DNA of 64,000 nt, taken from UHGV virus genome UHGV-1378817. One strand, given 5' to 3'. The stretch comes from a virus. Under the pieces are notes generated by a model. It was not told where the DNA came from, made no database searches, and saw nothing but the letters and a program-made list of their open reading frames with translations. A program made the translations under genes and the position numbers. This document shows, in pieces, positions 946 through 63,659 of the stretch (the stretch's first letter is position 1; the number at the start of each line of letters is the position of its first letter).

Positions 946-1370
946 CAGTTTTCTCCTTCAGGCTCTTCTACCACAAAAAATCTATATCTCCCACCACCAG
1001 AGGTAACATATGCATCGCATTTTAAAACAGTAAACCATTTCAAGTCACCACGGATGTCGGGCAGCTGAATTTGGTCAGCCATTGCATATGTTCCTTCATC
1101 CGGACTGTACAACTTGGTTGAGGAGTAAACTGTAAAAGCCTCGTACTGTCTGTCACCTTCAGGGTTTATTTGAGAGGAGTAATCTTTGGCTGCCCTTCCT
1201 GTCAACGGCTGCACAACACACTCTAAGACATCAAACTCTTCATACTCAAGTTCTAACCCCTCGTTGGCAAAAGGGCCACCAACTGTTTTGTTATACACTC
1301 TGTGGCGACCTTTGAATGTTTTACGAGGTATTAGTCTGTTCTTTCCTATCAGCTTATAACCTGCTGCCAC
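945..1370 (-). CDS. hypothetical virion protein (head-tail connector region)
   Basis: 141 aa ORF, co-oriented, packed between structural ORFs. Confidence 0.35.
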   Translation of the reverse strand: MAAGYKLIGKNRLIPRKTFKGRHRVYNKTVGGPFANEGLELEYEEFDVLECVVQPLTGRAAKDYSSQINPEGDRQYEAFTVYSSTKLYSPDEGTYAMADQIQLPDIRGDLKWFTVLKCDAYVTSGGGRYRFFVVEEPEGEN

Positions 1371-1385
1371 TCAACCCCCTTATTT

Positions 1386-1856
1386 TCACTGTCCGATTTT
1401 AAAGGTTGCAGATTCAAGCAGCACATCGTAATGCCGCATAGCCTCGTTGAAGCCCTTTTCTTGTGCCCACTGCTCACTAACAGTAGGATTACTAAACTGC
1501 CCAGCCTCAATAACAAACTGAATAGCTTTGGCCCCTGTGTCCCCCATCTGCTTAAGAATATCCTCTGCACTTGATCCTCTAGCCATAGCTCTCAACAATT
1601 TTTCTGTCAAGGTCTGTAGTTGAGTACTATGAAATGCAAAGGCTGTCTCCATGAAATTGCGAACAGGCAGCCCGTTCCAACCGAAGTTGTGAATGGCTGC
1701 CAATGTTGCCATATTTAAGCCTGACGGGTGAGGTTCGTCATAAAAGCCGTAGGTTATTGTTTTACTTTCAAGTCTCACAAGGTCTTTGTAGAAGCGATCT
1801 AAACGCTTTAGGTTGAACCTTGTTTGACATTTAACCTTTAGCATTATATCCCTCAC
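1386..1856 (-). CDS. hypothetical virion protein (head completion/neck region)
   Basis: 156 aa ORF in structural block. Confidence 0.35.
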   Translation of the reverse strand: MRDIMLKVKCQTRFNLKRLDRFYKDLVRLESKTITYGFYDEPHPSGLNMATLAAIHNFGWNGLPVRNFMETAFAFHSTQLQTLTEKLLRAMARGSSAEDILKQMGDTGAKAIQFVIEAGQFSNPTVSEQWAQEKGFNEAMRHYDVLLESATFKIGQ

Positions 1857-1897
1857 TAATGTATTTTACCACAAAGATACATCAAAAGCAACAATTT

Positions 1898-2518
1898 TTA
1901 AAAACTGCGTTTGCGTCTTGGGTGGCGAGGAGGTTGGTTATTTAGACCACTGATAGGTGTAATCCCCTGGACATCAAACGGTCCGTTGCTGTTTTCATTA
2001 AATTTAACCCGAATTCCTTCGTCTACACGAACACCACCAATGATAATCATTCTGCTGTAAGCATCCAGTTCAGAATCTACATAGTCAGGGTGTGCCAGCA
2101 GCCAATCAAGGAAATCTTTCCATTGGGCGTAGGAAGATCCACCACGAATCTCTATGGTCTCATCACCTATTTTTTCCAGACGGGAAGTTATACTTGCATT
2201 ACCGCTGGACACTTCCTGCATCATCAGCCACCTCACAAGCTGCACAAGCACATTGTACTTAAGCAGAGGTAGCTTATCAGGATCTGCCGGATAATTTAGT
2301 TTCAGCTTCTCCATGTCAAGGAATGTTTTAATTACCTCGTCAGGGAGGGTTTCCTCATCAACATTGCCAAGCAACAACCTCATAATATTAATAAGAGGTT
2401 GATCTGGATCAGGTTCCGGAGGTACAGGATCTTCTTTTGGTGGTTCTTCTGGGGTATCAACTACACCATCATGGTTAGGCGGGGACGGGATAATCTCTTC
2501 ATCTTCATACCATGCCAT
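1898..2518 (-). CDS. hypothetical virion protein
   Basis: ORF track 1898-2575 trimmed to internal ATG (MAWYEDEE...) that has a GAGGT SD and no longer overlaps the upstream gene. Confidence 0.35.
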   Translation of the reverse strand: MAWYEDEEIIPSPPNHDGVVDTPEEPPKEDPVPPEPDPDQPLINIMRLLLGNVDEETLPDEVIKTFLDMEKLKLNYPADPDKLPLLKYNVLVQLVRWLMMQEVSSGNASITSRLEKIGDETIEIRGGSSYAQWKDFLDWLLAHPDYVDSELDAYSRMIIIGGVRVDEGIRVKFNENSNGPFDVQGITPISGLNNQPPRHPRRKRSF

Positions 2519-2577
2519 TTGAAAATACCTCGTAAAAATAAAGCCCCATTCCTGATTTGGAAGGGGCCTTAACAAAA

Positions 2578-3426
2578 TTATGCCAGTGCAGCCTCAAAAT
2601 CTTTCATCATATTTTGGAAAGTTTTTGCCTTACTTAAGGTAACACCGTACTCTTTGGCGAAGGCTTGAAGTGCATCTTTTGAACCACTTTTGTCATCTTC
2701 GTTGTTAAGAGCTGCTGCCTGCTGTAGCAGGGCATCAACATCACTGCGAGAAGATCTTGATTCTTGTGCCTGTTCAGGATCCTGCTCAGTGCCTTCCTCC
2801 GGTACAGTCGGGCCTTGGGATTCTTCACCACCACCACCAGGTTCAGTAGGACCTACAGGCGGCTCCGGCTCTGGTTCAGGCGGTGGAGCTATCGTAGAGA
2901 CCAGTCCAAGATTTACAACCTGAGAACGTTTCTTAGGCCACTCAATGGTGAAAGTTTGGGTATCTTCTTCATAAACAATGCTGCATTGCTCATCGTTTAT
3001 GGTCACTTTTTTAGGCATCCCTACAGGGTCCCATAGATGGCCCTCTGCCACGGAAACTTGGAAAGCCGCATCTACCTCTTTAAACACTGACGGGGTGAGT
3101 GTGATATTGACATCCCCGCTTTGCAGTGTTAAAGTGCTTTCATCAAGGTTCTCTGTGAAGAACAGAAGAATAACACCCATACGGATAGTTGAAATACCAG
3201 TATCAATTGGCAGTCCTGTATGTTTTGCAATCTTCTCGAAGAAGTCTACAATCGTTCTGCACGGATAGTGAACACTGCCGATAACGAATTCTGTTGGTGG
3301 CAGCAGGGCTGATAAACCAACATTGATTTCTGGATTATATTGTGCTAAAAATTGATAAAAACTTAACTGATTGTTGAAAACTCTTAATAGAGGATCATAC
3401 TCAACTGGGTAGACGGTTCGCTTCAC
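2578..3426 (-). CDS. virion-associated protein with Pro/Glu-rich linker
   Basis: 282 aa; two domains separated by PPPEPEPEPPVGPTEPGGGGEE low-complexity linker; immediately downstream of capsid gene terminator. Confidence 0.35.
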   Translation of the reverse strand: MKRTVYPVEYDPLLRVFNNQLSFYQFLAQYNPEINVGLSALLPPTEFVIGSVHYPCRTIVDFFEKIAKHTGLPIDTGISTIRMGVILLFFTENLDESTLTLQSGDVNITLTPSVFKEVDAAFQVSVAEGHLWDPVGMPKKVTINDEQCSIVYEEDTQTFTIEWPKKRSQVVNLGLVSTIAPPPEPEPEPPVGPTEPGGGGEESQGPTVPEEGTEQDPEQAQESRSSRSDVDALLQQAAALNNEDDKSGSKDALQAFAKEYGVTLSKAKTFQNMMKDFEAALA

Positions 3427-3446
3427 GGGACACTCCTGTTAAACCC

Positions 3447-3484
3447 TAATAAATAAAAAGGGGAGGGGGAGAACCCCCTCCCCA
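3447..3484 (-). terminator. intrinsic terminator after major capsid gene
   Basis: GGGGAGGGGG-AGAA-CCCCCTCCCC hairpin followed on minus strand by TTTTTATTTATT. Confidence 0.7.
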
Positions 3485-3507
3485 TATGGGATGAATCACA
3501 TCAGTGA

Positions 3508-4518
3508 TTATTCACCACCTTTCAGAGTTGCTTTAACAACCAGCTCTGGACGGGTGTTAACTGCCAGCATGGAAGTTTCAGATTCAATCTTCTCTTCACG
3601 CAGGTATGCAGAGTGTTTATACCACATGTACAGTTCCTGTGCTGGAGTGTTTGCTTCGTTAACATCGTCTGCCGGAGCAAAGTGCAGCTGGAACATCTGA
3701 TCAATACCCATCGGCAGAATGCGAGCTTCTTTCTTAGGAATATTGCCAGAGATATCTTCAATAAAGGTGATACCTTTATGCTCAAACACACGGTATACGC
3801 TGTCTTGACCGCCAGCACCCAGACGGCGACGCAGAGGTTCCTGAGCAGAGCCGTAATAGGTGTATGCCAGTTCTACCAGCGGGTGATGAGTAACAGCACT
3901 GAAGAACTCCGGTGAGCACAGAGCTACAATGCGATAGCCAGCTGCGTTATCACCAGCTTGCAGTGCGATGTGCAGACGAGCTTCTTCCAGAACCTCCATA
4001 GGATCCTGATCTGCTTTTGCAGGGTCGATCTCAACAGACTTCTGAGACACACCCCACAGAGTGTAGTAATCATACTGGCAGGTAGCGTCACCAGGTGCAT
4101 AGGATTTACCAAGAATAGCCTGGAACAGCGCTTTCTCACGCAGTGCTTCATGGGAAACACGGATACGGCGAACAACGCGGGTTACTACGTCCTGAACAGT
4201 TTTCGGAGCATCAGGAGTGAAGTAACGACGGAAGTTCTGGACATCTGCAGCAGTGATACCTTTATCCAGAGGGAAGAACGGGATGTTCAGGTTTTTAACC
4301 TGAGCACGTTCATTACCAACGTAGTTACGCTCACCACCACGACGGCGTGCCGGAATGTCGGTTACAACTTCATCAACACGCTCAATCTGAGCAATTGTTG
4401 AGGTGCCAAGACGAGTTTCGAACAGATCCATGCCGGTAATCAGGCGAAATTGACGCGGAACAAGGTCCAGAGTAGCACCTAAATCGACAATGCCAAATTC
4501 ATCTTTACGAGTAATCAT
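3508..4518 (-). CDS. major capsid protein (putative)
   Basis: 336 aa ORF downstream of scaffold-like and decoration-like ORFs, followed by the strongest terminator in the block; position and size based. Confidence 0.5.
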   Translation of the reverse strand: MITRKDEFGIVDLGATLDLVPRQFRLITGMDLFETRLGTSTIAQIERVDEVVTDIPARRRGGERNYVGNERAQVKNLNIPFFPLDKGITAADVQNFRRYFTPDAPKTVQDVVTRVVRRIRVSHEALREKALFQAILGKSYAPGDATCQYDYYTLWGVSQKSVEIDPAKADQDPMEVLEEARLHIALQAGDNAAGYRIVALCSPEFFSAVTHHPLVELAYTYYGSAQEPLRRRLGAGGQDSVYRVFEHKGITFIEDISGNIPKKEARILPMGIDQMFQLHFAPADDVNEANTPAQELYMWYKHSAYLREEKIESETSMLAVNTRPELVVKATLKGGE

Positions 4519-4569
4519 TTATTTCTCCAAAGTAAAACTTAAATATTTTCCCGAACAATTTAGGGCTTA

Positions 4570-4956
4570 TTATTCACCAAGAGTCTGGACGTGAACTTTG
4601 TTACCTAAAGCTTCCAACTTATCCAGAATTCTTTGGTCTGCTTTAGCTCCATCTGCACCTAACAGCATGTCTTTTGCAAAGGTAACACCATGGACGGCAA
4701 CAACCAGGTTATAGGATTGGCCTACTTCTAACGGTTTTGCAAGATGGACCGTACCAGCATCTTTGACAAGAGCACGGTCAACAAGAACGCCGTACACATC
4801 AGAACCGTCTGCGTTAGCGATGGTACCAGTTTTTGTTACAACAGTGCCAGCGTGGTGATGCTCTGTCAGTGTTACCTTAATCTCTTTAAAATTGTAGCCA
4901 GCATCGCTAGAATCAACTTTGCCGAGCACGATATCAGAATATTGAGCGGTAATCAT
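4570..4956 (-). CDS. putative head decoration/auxiliary capsid protein
   Basis: 128 aa Gly/Val/Thr-rich ORF between scaffold-like and capsid genes. Confidence 0.3.
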   Translation of the reverse strand: MITAQYSDIVLGKVDSSDAGYNFKEIKVTLTEHHHAGTVVTKTGTIANADGSDVYGVLVDRALVKDAGTVHLAKPLEVGQSYNLVVAVHGVTFAKDMLLGADGAKADQRILDKLEALGNKVHVQTLGE

Positions 4957-4976
4957 TTATTTCCCCCGTTAATGTC

Positions 4977-5954
4977 TTATTTGGTAGATTCTGCACGTGC
5001 ACGAGCAAGTGCTTTTGCAACGTTTTCAGCAAGAATTTCTTCTGCGGATTTCGCAATATCATCCACAACAGGTTCGCCATCATTACCATGTTCAGTGGTG
5101 GCAAACTCTTCTTTGGTTTTATGCACCTCTGCTTCCAGCTCTTCAATTTTTGCTTGAGCTTTCTCCAGCATAGCTACGATAGGTTCGTTAGCTTTTTCCA
5201 GCATGAAGTCAACCAGGGTTGCATGATCTTCTTCACCAACAAAGCTTAAAGCTTGAGCCTTAGTCAGCATTTTAGCTTTTTCAACTTCAACCTGGGCCTT
5301 GATGATTTCTTCAGCTTTACTCTGGGTTGCTTTCAGCTCTTCTACTTGCTTCAGCAGATCCAGATACTCTTTAGTTTTGGTTACGTCCACCGGATTCTCC
5401 TCGGTATTTGCGGATTTTGCAACATCATCCACCTCGGCAGTTTTATCCACCTCAGCAGGTTCCTGTACCGCCTTGATCAGGTTCCCTTCTTTATCGAAGA
5501 GATCAGCGGTTACTTGTTCAAAAATCTGTTGTGTTTTTAACAGGCTGTACTGATCTACCACGCTAAGCTGCTTACCTTCTTTTGCAGCTTTATGAATGGT
5601 CACGTTATCACAACGCTCTTCCAGCCATGCAATACAAGACTCTGCGTCAGCTTGCGCCCATTCCCAATCAGGATGCTCTTTAGCCCAAGCCTCCTCTTCA
5701 ATCTCAAAACCAAGCATGTGTGCAAGTGCTTTAGCATCATCATACCACATATCAAAGAAACGACGCAGGTATTCTTCAAAACTAAGCTCCACAGTAACTT
5801 GGCGAAGTGCCTTAACAATATCGTCTGTTAACTGCTCAGGCTTAAGATCACTCTTCATCAAAAGAGATACAGGTCTGTTGTTAGCGCTATAGCCTTGCGC
5901 CTTATGGCACAGGGCAATCCCCTTCTCTTTAATAGTAATCGTTTTTTCAGACAT
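4977..5954 (-). CDS. putative head scaffolding protein
   Basis: 325 aa, highly charged with long predicted coiled-coil stretches (EELKATQSKAEEIIKAQVEVEKAK...); sits between portal-side genes and capsid. Confidence 0.45.
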   Translation of the reverse strand: MSEKTITIKEKGIALCHKAQGYSANNRPVSLLMKSDLKPEQLTDDIVKALRQVTVELSFEEYLRRFFDMWYDDAKALAHMLGFEIEEEAWAKEHPDWEWAQADAESCIAWLEERCDNVTIHKAAKEGKQLSVVDQYSLLKTQQIFEQVTADLFDKEGNLIKAVQEPAEVDKTAEVDDVAKSANTEENPVDVTKTKEYLDLLKQVEELKATQSKAEEIIKAQVEVEKAKMLTKAQALSFVGEEDHATLVDFMLEKANEPIVAMLEKAQAKIEELEAEVHKTKEEFATTEHGNDGEPVVDDIAKSAEEILAENVAKALARARAESTK

Positions 5955-61777: not shown

Positions 61778-61867
61778 GATGTTATCCTCTTTGTTTTGTG
61801 TTGGGGCAAACGTCTTGCCCCCTTGAGTTTTAATATAGCAGGTTTTTAGGTTATTGCAACACTTTAT

Positions 61868-62491
61868 TTATGAAAAAGTCATCTCACCATATTCATCGAC
61901 ATCAAACCGCCAATCATTGGCCTCGATAAGGCCGATCAGGTTTTCTGCGGTGAACTGTTCTAGATAGGCCTCCTTCAGGTCTACGTAAACCTTGCGGGAT
62001 AGCTCCCGTACCGTCTCGGTGATCAGTTCTTCCAGGTCTTCCACTTTGTTTTCTTGTTTGGCGGTCAGATCTAGCCAAGTGGTATCAATGTACCCGCTTA
62101 CAGTGTTTTCATGGCTGTAATGGCTGTACTTGTCGCGTTCAACACTGGCTGATAACTCGCCATCGTGCATTGTGCCGAACAAGTGACGAATTGATCGGAA
62201 CTTGGTCAGGGCCTTTACTTTACGCAAAAATTTTTCTAAATCCACGTTTTCAGCACTGATTGACGCGCCGTCACCCTGGCACCAAAAGCCGGACCAATGT
62301 ACTTCGGTATCTTCAAGGCCGTACTCTGGAAAGATATATTCTTTGTAGTGTTCAATTACACTTTCTGCAAAAAAGTTATCCCCGCTGTGTTCTTCTCTTT
62401 CGCGGACCATTTCAATAGCTTTTTCTTTTTGTTCGTCGGTCAGCACGTCGAAAGATAAATTGTAACCTGTGGTAATGTTAACGGTGGTCAT
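61868..62491 (-). CDS. hypothetical protein (207 aa)
   Basis: Largest gene of the block; conserved-looking HWSGFWCQGDGASI motif; own promoter. Confidence 0.45.
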   Translation of the reverse strand: MTTVNITTGYNLSFDVLTDEQKEKAIEMVREREEHSGDNFFAESVIEHYKEYIFPEYGLEDTEVHWSGFWCQGDGASISAENVDLEKFLRKVKALTKFRSIRHLFGTMHDGELSASVERDKYSHYSHENTVSGYIDTTWLDLTAKQENKVEDLEELITETVRELSRKVYVDLKEAYLEQFTAENLIGLIEANDWRFDVDEYGEMTFS

Positions 62492-62548
62492 GATATTTTC
62501 TCCTATTTTCTTTGTTAGTGGCGGGAAAACTTCCCGCCTGTGTGCTTA

Positions 62549-62576
62549 AGTATACTTATTGAGATTTACTTGTCAA
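62549..62576 (-). promoter_or_regulatory. sigma70-like promoter (minus strand) with 5' leader hairpin
   Basis: On minus strand TTGACA, 16-nt spacer, TATACT, then GGCGGGAA-gttt-TCCCGCC hairpin before SD. Confidence 0.55.
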
Positions 62577-62826
62577 CACTATTTTTTAAATTATTGTGGC
62601 GTAAAATATTCAAGATCTCTTCAACGTCATCAACACGGCGGCAATTTTTAAACGCTACCAATTGCCCCAGGATTTTAATCACTGGACGGCCTTGCCAGTG
62701 CCCTTGGAGAAAGCGCGCTTTAACTTTATCGGTGGAACTATCACGCCACCAAATAGCCTTGTTGTTGCAGTAGTAAAAATTATTCAGGATAACATCAACT
62801 TTATCAAAATTTTTTAATTTACGCAT
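62566..62826 (-). CDS. hypothetical protein
   Basis: 86 aa basic ORF. Confidence 0.4.
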   Translation of the reverse strand: MRKLKNFDKVDVILNNFYYCNNKAIWWRDSSTDKVKARFLQGHWQGRPVIKILGQLVAFKNCRRVDDVEEILNILRHNNLKNSVDK

Positions 62827-62858: not shown

Positions 62859-62886
62859 AGTATAGCTAACCTGTTGACGATGTCAA
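62859..62886 (-). promoter_or_regulatory. sigma70-like promoter (minus strand)
   Basis: On minus strand TTGACA, 16-nt spacer, TATACT; upstream of 62566-62826. Confidence 0.55.
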
Positions 62887-63002: not shown

Positions 63003-63036
63003 ATAGAAATAAAAAGCCCCGCACAATGGCGGGGCG
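63003..63036 (-). terminator. intrinsic terminator
   Basis: GCCCCGC-acaatg-GCGGGGC hairpin followed on minus strand by TTTTTATTTC, just after stop of 63044-63265. Confidence 0.65.
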
Positions 63037-63043
63037 TTGGTTG

Positions 63044-63265
63044 TTATTTGCCTTTGTGGCGGTATCGTTCCGCCTGTCGTTCACGTTCCAAAAGCAGGCC
63101 CGGTAATTTGCGATCATAATGATTCCGCCAGATCTTCCCAAATCTTTTTGGCTTATTCAGTTTATTGTTGCGCTGGCGGCGTTCCGGCAGCTCTTCGGAA
63201 GCATGAGATCGCTTTACAATCTTCTCAAAATTAATCTTCATATATTCCCCCCTTGCTAACTTCAA
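63044..63265 (-). CDS. hypothetical basic protein
   Basis: 73 aa, Arg/Lys-rich. Confidence 0.35.
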   Translation of the reverse strand: MKLARGEYMKINFEKIVKRSHASEELPERRQRNNKLNKPKRFGKIWRNHYDRKLPGLLLERERQAERYRHKGK

Positions 63266-63584
63266 TATTGGCCTGAATAGCCCGGATACGGCGCTTTATA
63301 ACTTCCTGATCTGTGTGATCGTATCCCCAAAAGTCTACGATTTTTGCGCCTCCAGCCTTTAGGCGGTATAGTGTTTCTTGCATCTTGTAAGCCGGGATCG
63401 GTCGCGGTGTTACCTGGTCGCCCTTCTCATTCTTGTACTTGATAATGTAGTCTTCATTGTCGTTGAATACCCAAAATGGGTATTCTGTGAGCGCGTTGCT
63501 CTCTTTTTCGTTTTTAGATTGGATCTTGTTTACAATTAAAGCCGTAGCAATAGCGCCAATAATAAAACTTGCCCCGCTGATCAT
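63231..63584 (-). CDS. membrane-anchored hypothetical protein
   Basis: Start set to ATG 63584 (MISGASFIIGAIATALIV...) with AAGGAG SD. Confidence 0.4.
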   Translation of the reverse strand: MISGASFIIGAIATALIVNKIQSKNEKESNALTEYPFWVFNDNEDYIIKYKNEKGDQVTPRPIPAYKMQETLYRLKAGGAKIVDFWGYDHTDQEVIKRRIRAIQANIEVSKGGIYED

Positions 63585-63659
63585 GTACTTTCTCCTTTCA
63601 TTGTGTTGATAAACTGTCTTTATAGATGGCCCTGCTACCAGGACCACCGAAAAAACAGC

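Follow-up and report, generated by a model that had tools for sequence, protein, structure and literature searches.

Among the characterized anti-defence proteins, ArdA of conjugative elements and the Ocr protein of phage T7 block restriction by mimicking DNA; they are small and strongly acidic, are encoded on DNA that enters the cell or is expressed first, use host-type promoters, and carry acidic residues along their helices. The antirestriction gene KlcA/ArdB (PF03230) is a typical establishment gene of plasmids and islands. Tad1, Tad2, Acb1, Acb2, and Apyc1, with which phages sponge up or degrade immune signals, are likewise small and early, and a handful of their pocket residues, aromatic or polar, are invariant. 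Here, we describe a gene at 61868..62491 on the minus strand of UHGV virus genome UHGV-1378817, a 64,000-nucleotide stretch of virus DNA, the whole of which we call the window. Its product belongs to a very large family of acidic alpha/beta proteins of about 190–215 amino acids, to which no function is assigned and which is restricted to mobile genetic elements. It shares with ArdA and Ocr a small size, strong acidity, acidic residues along the helices, and a predicted host-type promoter, and with the Tad, Acb, and Apyc1 proteins a small size and a set of invariant residues in what is here a predicted pocket; its promoter would allow early expression, and several relatives lie in DNA that probably enters first. 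We read it, tentatively, as a possible counter-defence or establishment factor.

The window protein matches PHROG 5162, a family of unknown function, with E = 1.2e-88, residues 4–205 aligning with positions 2–200 of the 201 in the profile. A word-indexed search returned 41 relatives with identity down to 28%, and a 17-sequence profile made from these was searched against 1.84 billion representatives of 50%-identity clusters, with 7,328 proteins passing E <= 1e-3, 4,631 of them passing E <= 1e-10 and 591 passing E <= 1e-30. The profile matches listed are almost all 185–215 amino acids long. An earlier note, written from the sequence by eye, had called the protein the largest orphan of the early block. 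Its open reading frame (ORF) is correct as proposed (207 amino acids, minus strand, ATG start) and is the longest on the minus strand among the small genes at about 53–64 kb, but a protein that matches PHROG 5162 and has 7,328 family cluster representatives is no orphan.

The gene and the parts of its product on which the argument turns are as follows, with secondary structure taken from the model described below.

61868..62491, minus strand: coding sequence, 207 amino acids, 24.2 kDa, isoelectric point (pI) 4.56, net charge -23, ATG start
62321..62449, minus strand: residues 15–57, two N-terminal helices; positions 16, 27, 31, 35, 43, 47, and 51 are D/E family-wide
62258..62299, minus strand: residues 65–78, HWSGFWCQGDGASI, Gly-rich loop between strands 2 and 3; family signature
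62108..62119, minus strand: residues 125–128, YSHE, loop between strands 4 and 5; second signature (YxHE)
61955..62062, minus strand: residues 144–179, long helix with invariant Y169 and conserved R162, L172, and Y176

Conservation was scored in an end-to-end alignment of 70 sequences, 24–63% identical to the query. Ten residues are invariant (G58, G68, F69, Q72, G73, G75, A76, Y125, H127, and Y169); D74 is 99% conserved, L172, N192, F196, and G202 also reach at least 90%, and R119 (83%), E128 (76%), and R162 (69%) follow. All of the family signature residues, including D74 and N192, are present in the window protein. The earlier note had singled out a Trp/Gly/Cys-rich core, which is indeed found at residues 65–78, as an active or binding site. 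As a family signature this core holds up well, but Trp70 and Cys71 are not conserved (the consensus has W or another residue at 70 and Ser at 71); on the alignment, what is kept is SGF-x-S-QGDGA, and no other segment of this large family is conserved so strongly.

Acidity is equally general. All 70 sampled members are acidic (pI 4.1–5.5, net charge -9 to -31), and 24 alignment columns are at least 60% D/E, often with i/i+4 spacing along the helices. The acidic N-terminal stretch quoted in the earlier note, DVLTDEQKEKAIEMVREREEH, corresponds to residues 15–35, and helix 144–179 has a conserved acidic face at positions 152, 154, 159, 163, 171, 173, 175, and 177.

Searches for a relative of known function came back empty, and the earlier note, too, had seen no recognizable family by eye: profile, PDB, and AlphaFold2 plus Foldseek searches assigned no housekeeping family. 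Nothing significant was found for the window protein in Pfam, NCBIfam, or PADLOC (PADLOC-DB had no match at E <= 1), and Pfam gave no consistent match across the 70 members. Sequence and profile searches of the PDB with the single protein and with the 17- and 70-sequence profiles likewise gave nothing significant. A confident AlphaFold2 model computed from the 17-sequence alignment (predicted local distance difference test score, pLDDT, 85.9; predicted template modelling score, pTM, 0.78) has the topology b-a-a-b-b-a-a-b-b-long a-a-b-b, where b is a strand and a is a helix. Foldseek of this model against the PDB matched no solved fold (best E-value 0.39), and a search of BFVD returned uncharacterized phage proteins only. 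Aha1-N and SRPBCC-like matches were too weak and were rejected, and a GNAT acetyltransferase fold with its Q/R-x-x-G-x-G/A loop before helix 3 was not found in the window protein.

The sequence of the window is that of an rV5-like coliphage (Vequintavirus). Over the 1.5 kb surrounding the gene it shares 98% identity with Escherichia phages ime and EdH4, and 123 phage records match, nearly all of them Vequintavirus. The ten ORFs flanking the gene match only PHROGs of unknown function and have no significant Pfam match, and no DUF932, RadC, KlcA, or SSB gene occurs in the 64-kb window. The gene itself is under purifying selection, with a ratio of nonsynonymous to synonymous substitution rates (dN/dS) of 0.09–0.10 in comparison with JEP1 and rV5_ev158. 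In phages Alma (3469-4093), magaca, and V18 and in a few assemblies, a frameshift splits the gene into two ORFs of about 115–125 amino acids. Such splits are either true inactivation of an accessory gene or sequencing error; frameshifted copies in a few otherwise intact phages are what one would expect of an accessory gene.

Relatives were found in 209 phage records, from phages of Escherichia, Klebsiella, Salmonella, Erwinia, Bacillus, Acinetobacter, and Caulobacter. The groups represented include Vequintavirus, the jumbo phages of E. coli and Klebsiella (121Q, PBECO4, K64-1, and Muenster), the Erwinia jumbo phages, and the Bacillus Bastillevirinae, and IMG/VR adds at least 335 further relatives on contigs of about 5 kb to more than 400 kb. 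In several phages the gene lies close to or within the genome ends. In Klebsiella phage Muenster it is gene 6, located 3 kb from the left end and within the annotated 20-kb terminal repeat; in fENko-Kae01 it lies within the annotated direct terminal repeats; and in Bacillus phage Kioshi it is gene 9, located 3.2 kb from the end, with two matching places in the record. Ten contigs of the Erwinia jumbo-phage type carry a DUF932 gene 0.5–2 kb downstream of the family gene and at least one ORF away. DUF932 thus recurs near the family gene in three types of element: these jumbo phages, plasmids of Rhodobacteraceae, and E. coli islands. In another phage group, the neighbours of the family gene are a MoxR-like AAA+ protein and a DUF2201 protein (VWA plus metallopeptidase).

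The plasmid branch of the family is large. When a Rhodobacteraceae member was used as the query, 109 plasmids matched, 41 of which are typed as conjugative. The module in these plasmids runs H-NS, ssb, DUF932, RadC, DUF6878, three small ORFs, and the family gene, and continues with an S-adenosylmethionine (SAM)-methyltransferase/strawberry-notch (Sbno)-type helicase, toprim, and DUF2493. Among the 80 best loci in GTDB, many of which are related alphaproteobacterial plasmids rather than independent cases, 63 have at least one marker gene of the plasmid or integrative and conjugative element module within 6 kb (methyltransferase-helicase at 54, DUF6878 at 34, DUF932 at 30, and RadC at 28). Integrases, a terminase, or a transposase flank the gene at three loci from other phyla. 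The plasmid branch appeared only with the alphaproteobacterial query, and tblastn of a metagenomic member against plasmids retrieved CP057073.1 only. This record, a 137,565-bp "plasmid" of E. coli from cattle faeces whose relative is 38% identical to the metagenomic member, is, to judge by its host and by a size that matches a Vequintavirus genome, probably an rV5-like phage genome deposited as a plasmid.

On the Acinetobacter indicus plasmid pB18-3 (8004-8982), the family gene has a type I-F cas3f-csy1-4-cas6f operon on one side and, on the other, a gene for a 62-amino-acid helix-turn-helix (HTH) protein. A pairing of the acr-aca kind was considered for this locus and rejected, as jackhmmer with the HTH protein showed no recurrence in 160 loci. 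A conserved partner gene common to phage, plasmid, and island was also rejected after an all-against-all phmmer comparison of the neighbours, in which only RadC was common to island and plasmid and nothing was common with the window.

In E. coli, islands of the CP4-44 type have the gene order DUF932, antirestriction protein, RadC (yeeS), DUF987 (yeeT), family gene, cbeA, and cbtA. The island member (WP_000094919, 215 amino acids) aligns with the phage protein over 200 residues at 23% identity, the two motifs falling in register, and occurs at 80% coverage or more in 1,943 of 5,426 complete E. coli genomes (~36%), in up to eight copies per genome. In many E. coli genomes, O157:H7 strains among them, all that remains of the island homologue is its last 107–113 nucleotides, which are unannotated. 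KlcA/ArdB is encoded in this same module, three genes upstream of the family member. Unlike KlcA, the window protein has no Pfam match and shows no similarity to it in sequence or fold, and the island KlcA has no tblastn match in the window.

The domain also occurs within much larger proteins. In a metagenomic protein of 1,479 amino acids (1155-5594 of its locus) with an N-terminal Fic domain, the family domain occupies residues 777–958, and two of the seven K-x-S-F-x-[DE]-[EP]-P junction repeats, at 766 and 969, bracket it exactly; these junction motifs may be places where a protease cuts. The gene that follows has a 1,096-amino-acid product with a weak LAGLIDADG match. Three proteins of 614–775 amino acids contain the domain in circularly permuted form, the C-terminal half (R..YxHE..long helix..NEYxF) preceding the N-terminal half (..SGFWSQGDGASF), and end with a conserved C-terminal region of several hundred residues to which no function is assigned. 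To go by these sequences, the family domain is an autonomous module, and the cassette in the Fic protein, together with the permutation, suggests that its two termini are near each other. Polyvalent architecture of this kind is reportedly described by Iyer et al. 2017 for effectors delivered by phages and conjugative elements. The family resembles polyvalent-protein modules in being a cassette between junction motifs and in its permuted forms; unlike them, it has no consistent match to a Pfam LPD or polyvalent-associated domain (1 of the 70 members hits LPD39, E = 0.008), and the window gene stands alone.

Expression signals precede the window gene in the following order.

62580..62592, minus strand: A/T-rich tract TTTAAAAAATA... 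directly 5' of the -35 hexamer, read from the sequence
62549..62576, minus strand: predicted sigma-70-type promoter, TTGACA (62576-62571), 16-nucleotide spacer, TATACT (62554-62549), 11 of 12 consensus matches
62520..62538, minus strand: 8-bp G+C-rich hairpin, GGCGGGAA-GUU-UUCCCGCC, about 4 nucleotides from the transcript start predicted at 62542 +/- 2
62500..62504, minus strand: Shine–Dalgarno sequence AGGAG, 8 nucleotides before the ATG, read from the sequence

The promoter and leader hairpin claimed in the earlier note are therefore both found, as a promoter-like site and a stem-loop that are conserved in Vequintavirinae. The preceding ORF (62566..62826) has its stop codon at 62566-62568, just downstream of the -35 hexamer, so that the promoter overlaps the end of that ORF. 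JEP1, rV5_ev158, and JLBYU08 keep the promoter, the A/T-rich tract, and a hairpin in the same position. In an Avunavirus relative, the protein of which is ~61% identical and the flanks of which have otherwise diverged, both promoter hexamers, the A/T tract, and the hairpin position are still recognizable. The tract, kept in all five aligned Vequintavirinae upstream regions including this diverged one, is a possible UP element.

The leader RNA as a whole folds at -20.5 kcal/mol (z = -2.45). Among the relatives, the stem of the hairpin is identical and the loop varies, and Avunavirus has a shorter GGCG/CGCC hairpin in the same place. The Alma record labels the equivalent hairpin as a terminator. 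As the stretch 3' of the hairpin is A-rich and not a U-run, we regard the structure as more probably a 5' stem-loop that stabilizes the messenger RNA.

What might such a protein do? The reading that we favor, and hold only tentatively, is that of an early establishment or counter-defence factor of a new mobile-element family that acts by binding, in stoichiometric amounts, a DNA-binding protein with which the host defends itself or processes DNA. Given a predicted sigma-70 promoter of host type, a hairpin at the 5' end, and a strong site for ribosome binding, the protein would be made by the unmodified host machinery once the DNA is inside. It would then bind, and stoichiometrically block, a host nucleic-acid-binding defence or DNA-processing protein, the contact being made through the conserved acidic helix faces and a pocket or loop formed by the SGFxSQGDGA and YxHE loops and Y169. 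By analogy with DNA-mimic inhibitors, the family-wide acidity would fit a surface that engages a basic nucleic-acid-binding partner. Circumstantial support for an anti-defence role, for which the earlier note had made the protein a candidate, comes from the places in which relatives are found, that is, terminal repeats, modules with ssb, DUF932, RadC, and the methyltransferase-helicase, an island bearing an antirestriction gene, and a Fic polyvalent protein. Confinement to mobile elements, positions tied to the DNA that enters first, the conserved sigma-70 promoter, and purifying selection all appear to point the same way. The plasmid regions that enter first concentrate anti-defence genes, ssb, methyltransferases, and many uncharacterized families (PMC11541004); the main text of that paper makes no mention of DUF932, RadC, DUF987, or YeeU.

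Several points weigh against this reading. The protein has no similarity in sequence or fold to ArdA, Ocr, KlcA, or any other characterized anti-defence protein, and literature searches found no paper on the PHROG 5162 family. In particular, unlike ArdA and Ocr, it has no PF07275 match and no solved-fold match, and the family is marked by a Gly-rich loop that is invariant and by a His/Tyr signature; to our knowledge, ArdA and Ocr are not defined by a motif of this kind. Residues Q72, D74, Y125, H127, and Y169, set in Gly-rich loops, have more the look of a site for catalysis or ligand binding than of a protein that does no more than mimic DNA, and a dN/dS of ~0.09 is lower than one would expect of an arms race with a variable target. 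As the neighbours in the window are all of unknown function, guilt by association has to be borrowed from distant relatives; there, the Rhodobacteraceae module appears from its gene content only to be a plasmid leading region, and the GTDB loci are, as noted, not independent.

The residues of the predicted pocket lead directly to a serious rival, though one that we consider rather unlikely, namely, that the protein is a small-molecule binder or enzyme, a sponge or hydrolase and not a protein inhibitor, built on the SGFxSQGDGA loop, Y125-x-H127, and Y169. Its ligand, on the same rather unlikely footing, would be nucleotide-like: an immune second messenger, NAD or ADP-ribose, or a modified base. 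The invariance of Q72, Y125, H127, and Y169 and the near-invariance of D74 among invariant glycines argue for such a site, as do R119 and R162, which are mostly conserved. In the model, both signature loops follow consecutive beta-hairpins and so probably lie on the same sheet edge, and Y169 on the long helix appears to face them, so that these residues would cluster in space. The circularly permuted form retains both halves and both motifs, and strong purifying selection suits an invariant ligand. Compared with Tad1, Tad2, Acb1, Acb2, and Apyc1, though, the family shows no similarity in sequence or fold and is widespread on plasmids and islands. A second rival, also serious though we think it unlikely, is an establishment or host-takeover function unrelated to immunity, in which the protein would modulate a host DNA-metabolism or transcription protein that is required on the arrival of foreign DNA, much as PsiB and plasmid SSB do; its targets would be, for instance, replication restart, recombination, the SOS response, or nucleoid proteins. 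The ssb, H-NS, RadC, toprim, and DUF932 neighbours, the last of these in three element types, speak for it, and the low dN/dS fits a conserved host target, although nothing points to one particular process and the family is found in virulent phages, plasmids, and islands, which replicate in very different ways.

The remaining rival is the one found in the databases. One Vequintavirus record, K64-1, and Muenster carry the label "YeeU-like antitoxin"; RefSeq names the plasmid and island members "antitoxin of toxin-antitoxin stability system"; and RefSeq, UniRef, and some phage records give relatives antitoxin names, including "Antitoxin of the YeeV-YeeU toxin-antitoxin system," a name also among those given to the island member adjoining cbeA. 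Taken at their word, these names would make the protein an antitoxin, either of the YeeU/CbeA type or a neutralizer of host toxin-antitoxin or abortive-infection toxins. The island gene lies immediately upstream of cbeA-cbtA, and on one plasmid a family gene lies upstream of an MbcA/RES pair. Against this, the record's own note traces the Muenster label to a BLAST match with an E. coli protein named "antitoxin of the YeeV-YeeU toxin-antitoxin system," and no NCBIfam model matches the four relatives scanned (two plasmid-type and two metagenomic). Homology to YeeU/CbeA was rejected: hhalign of the family profile against K-12 CbeA gave a probability of 0.3%, and BLASTP of the island member against the neighbouring CbeA gave no alignment. 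PF06154 matches neither the window protein nor any of the 70 members, and the window protein does not have a YeeU-like fold. K-12 carries cbeA-cbtA without the family gene; conversely, a toxin partner is absent in phages and in most plasmids examined, and no gene for a CbtA-family toxin was found among the ten ORFs flanking the window gene. Unlike the 207–215-residue proteins considered here, CbeA has 122 amino acids; what the two share is the database name and, in the island, adjacency. An antitoxin role is thus very improbable, and the label was most probably carried over from the annotation of cbeA next to it.

The counter-defence reading also has a wider form, which we find doubtful: a class of establishment or anti-defence protein new at the level of the fold, common to virulent phages, conjugative plasmids, and integrative islands across many phyla, that neutralizes a conserved barrier through the SGFxSQGDGA/YxHE site and has been hidden in thousands of genomes under the wrong "antitoxin" label. 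If the protein does serve counter-defence or establishment, few factors of this kind would be as widely distributed, with thousands of clusters, in several phage groups, in plasmids, and in about one-third of complete E. coli genomes. The invariant site offers clear point mutants, and the Vequintaviruses of the BASEL collection together with the E. coli islands make the question tractable. Correcting the labels "YeeU-like antitoxin" and "antitoxin of toxin-antitoxin stability system" is useful even without a function.

Two further sets of observations concern database records and the surroundings of the gene. Seventeen unannotated GenBank records titled "Campylobacter phage" match the rV5-like region. 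Four of these, MG065635, MG065653, MG065682, and MG065677, are 91–98% identical across it, and the assignment of these records to a Campylobacter host looks doubtful.

The same minus-strand layout of a sigma-70-like promoter, a G+C hairpin without a U-tail, and a Shine–Dalgarno sequence is seen at neighbouring genes, which suggests that the small genes of the block are transcribed separately, each with a stem-loop at the 5' end of its transcript. The neighbouring features are as follows.

62886..62859, minus strand: promoter-like site, TTGACA-16-TATACT
61859..61832, minus strand: promoter-like site, TTGCAA-16-TATATT with extended TG, then hairpin GGGGCAAGACGUUUGCCCC (region 61803-61859)
63016-63035: perfect 7-bp G+C hairpin, GCCCCGC...GCGGGGC; the minus strand has a T-run, TTTTTATTTC, and the plus strand only a T-rich tail that is weaker

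The last of these is probably a terminator that closes the upstream minus-strand unit at 63231..63647, and it may work in both directions.

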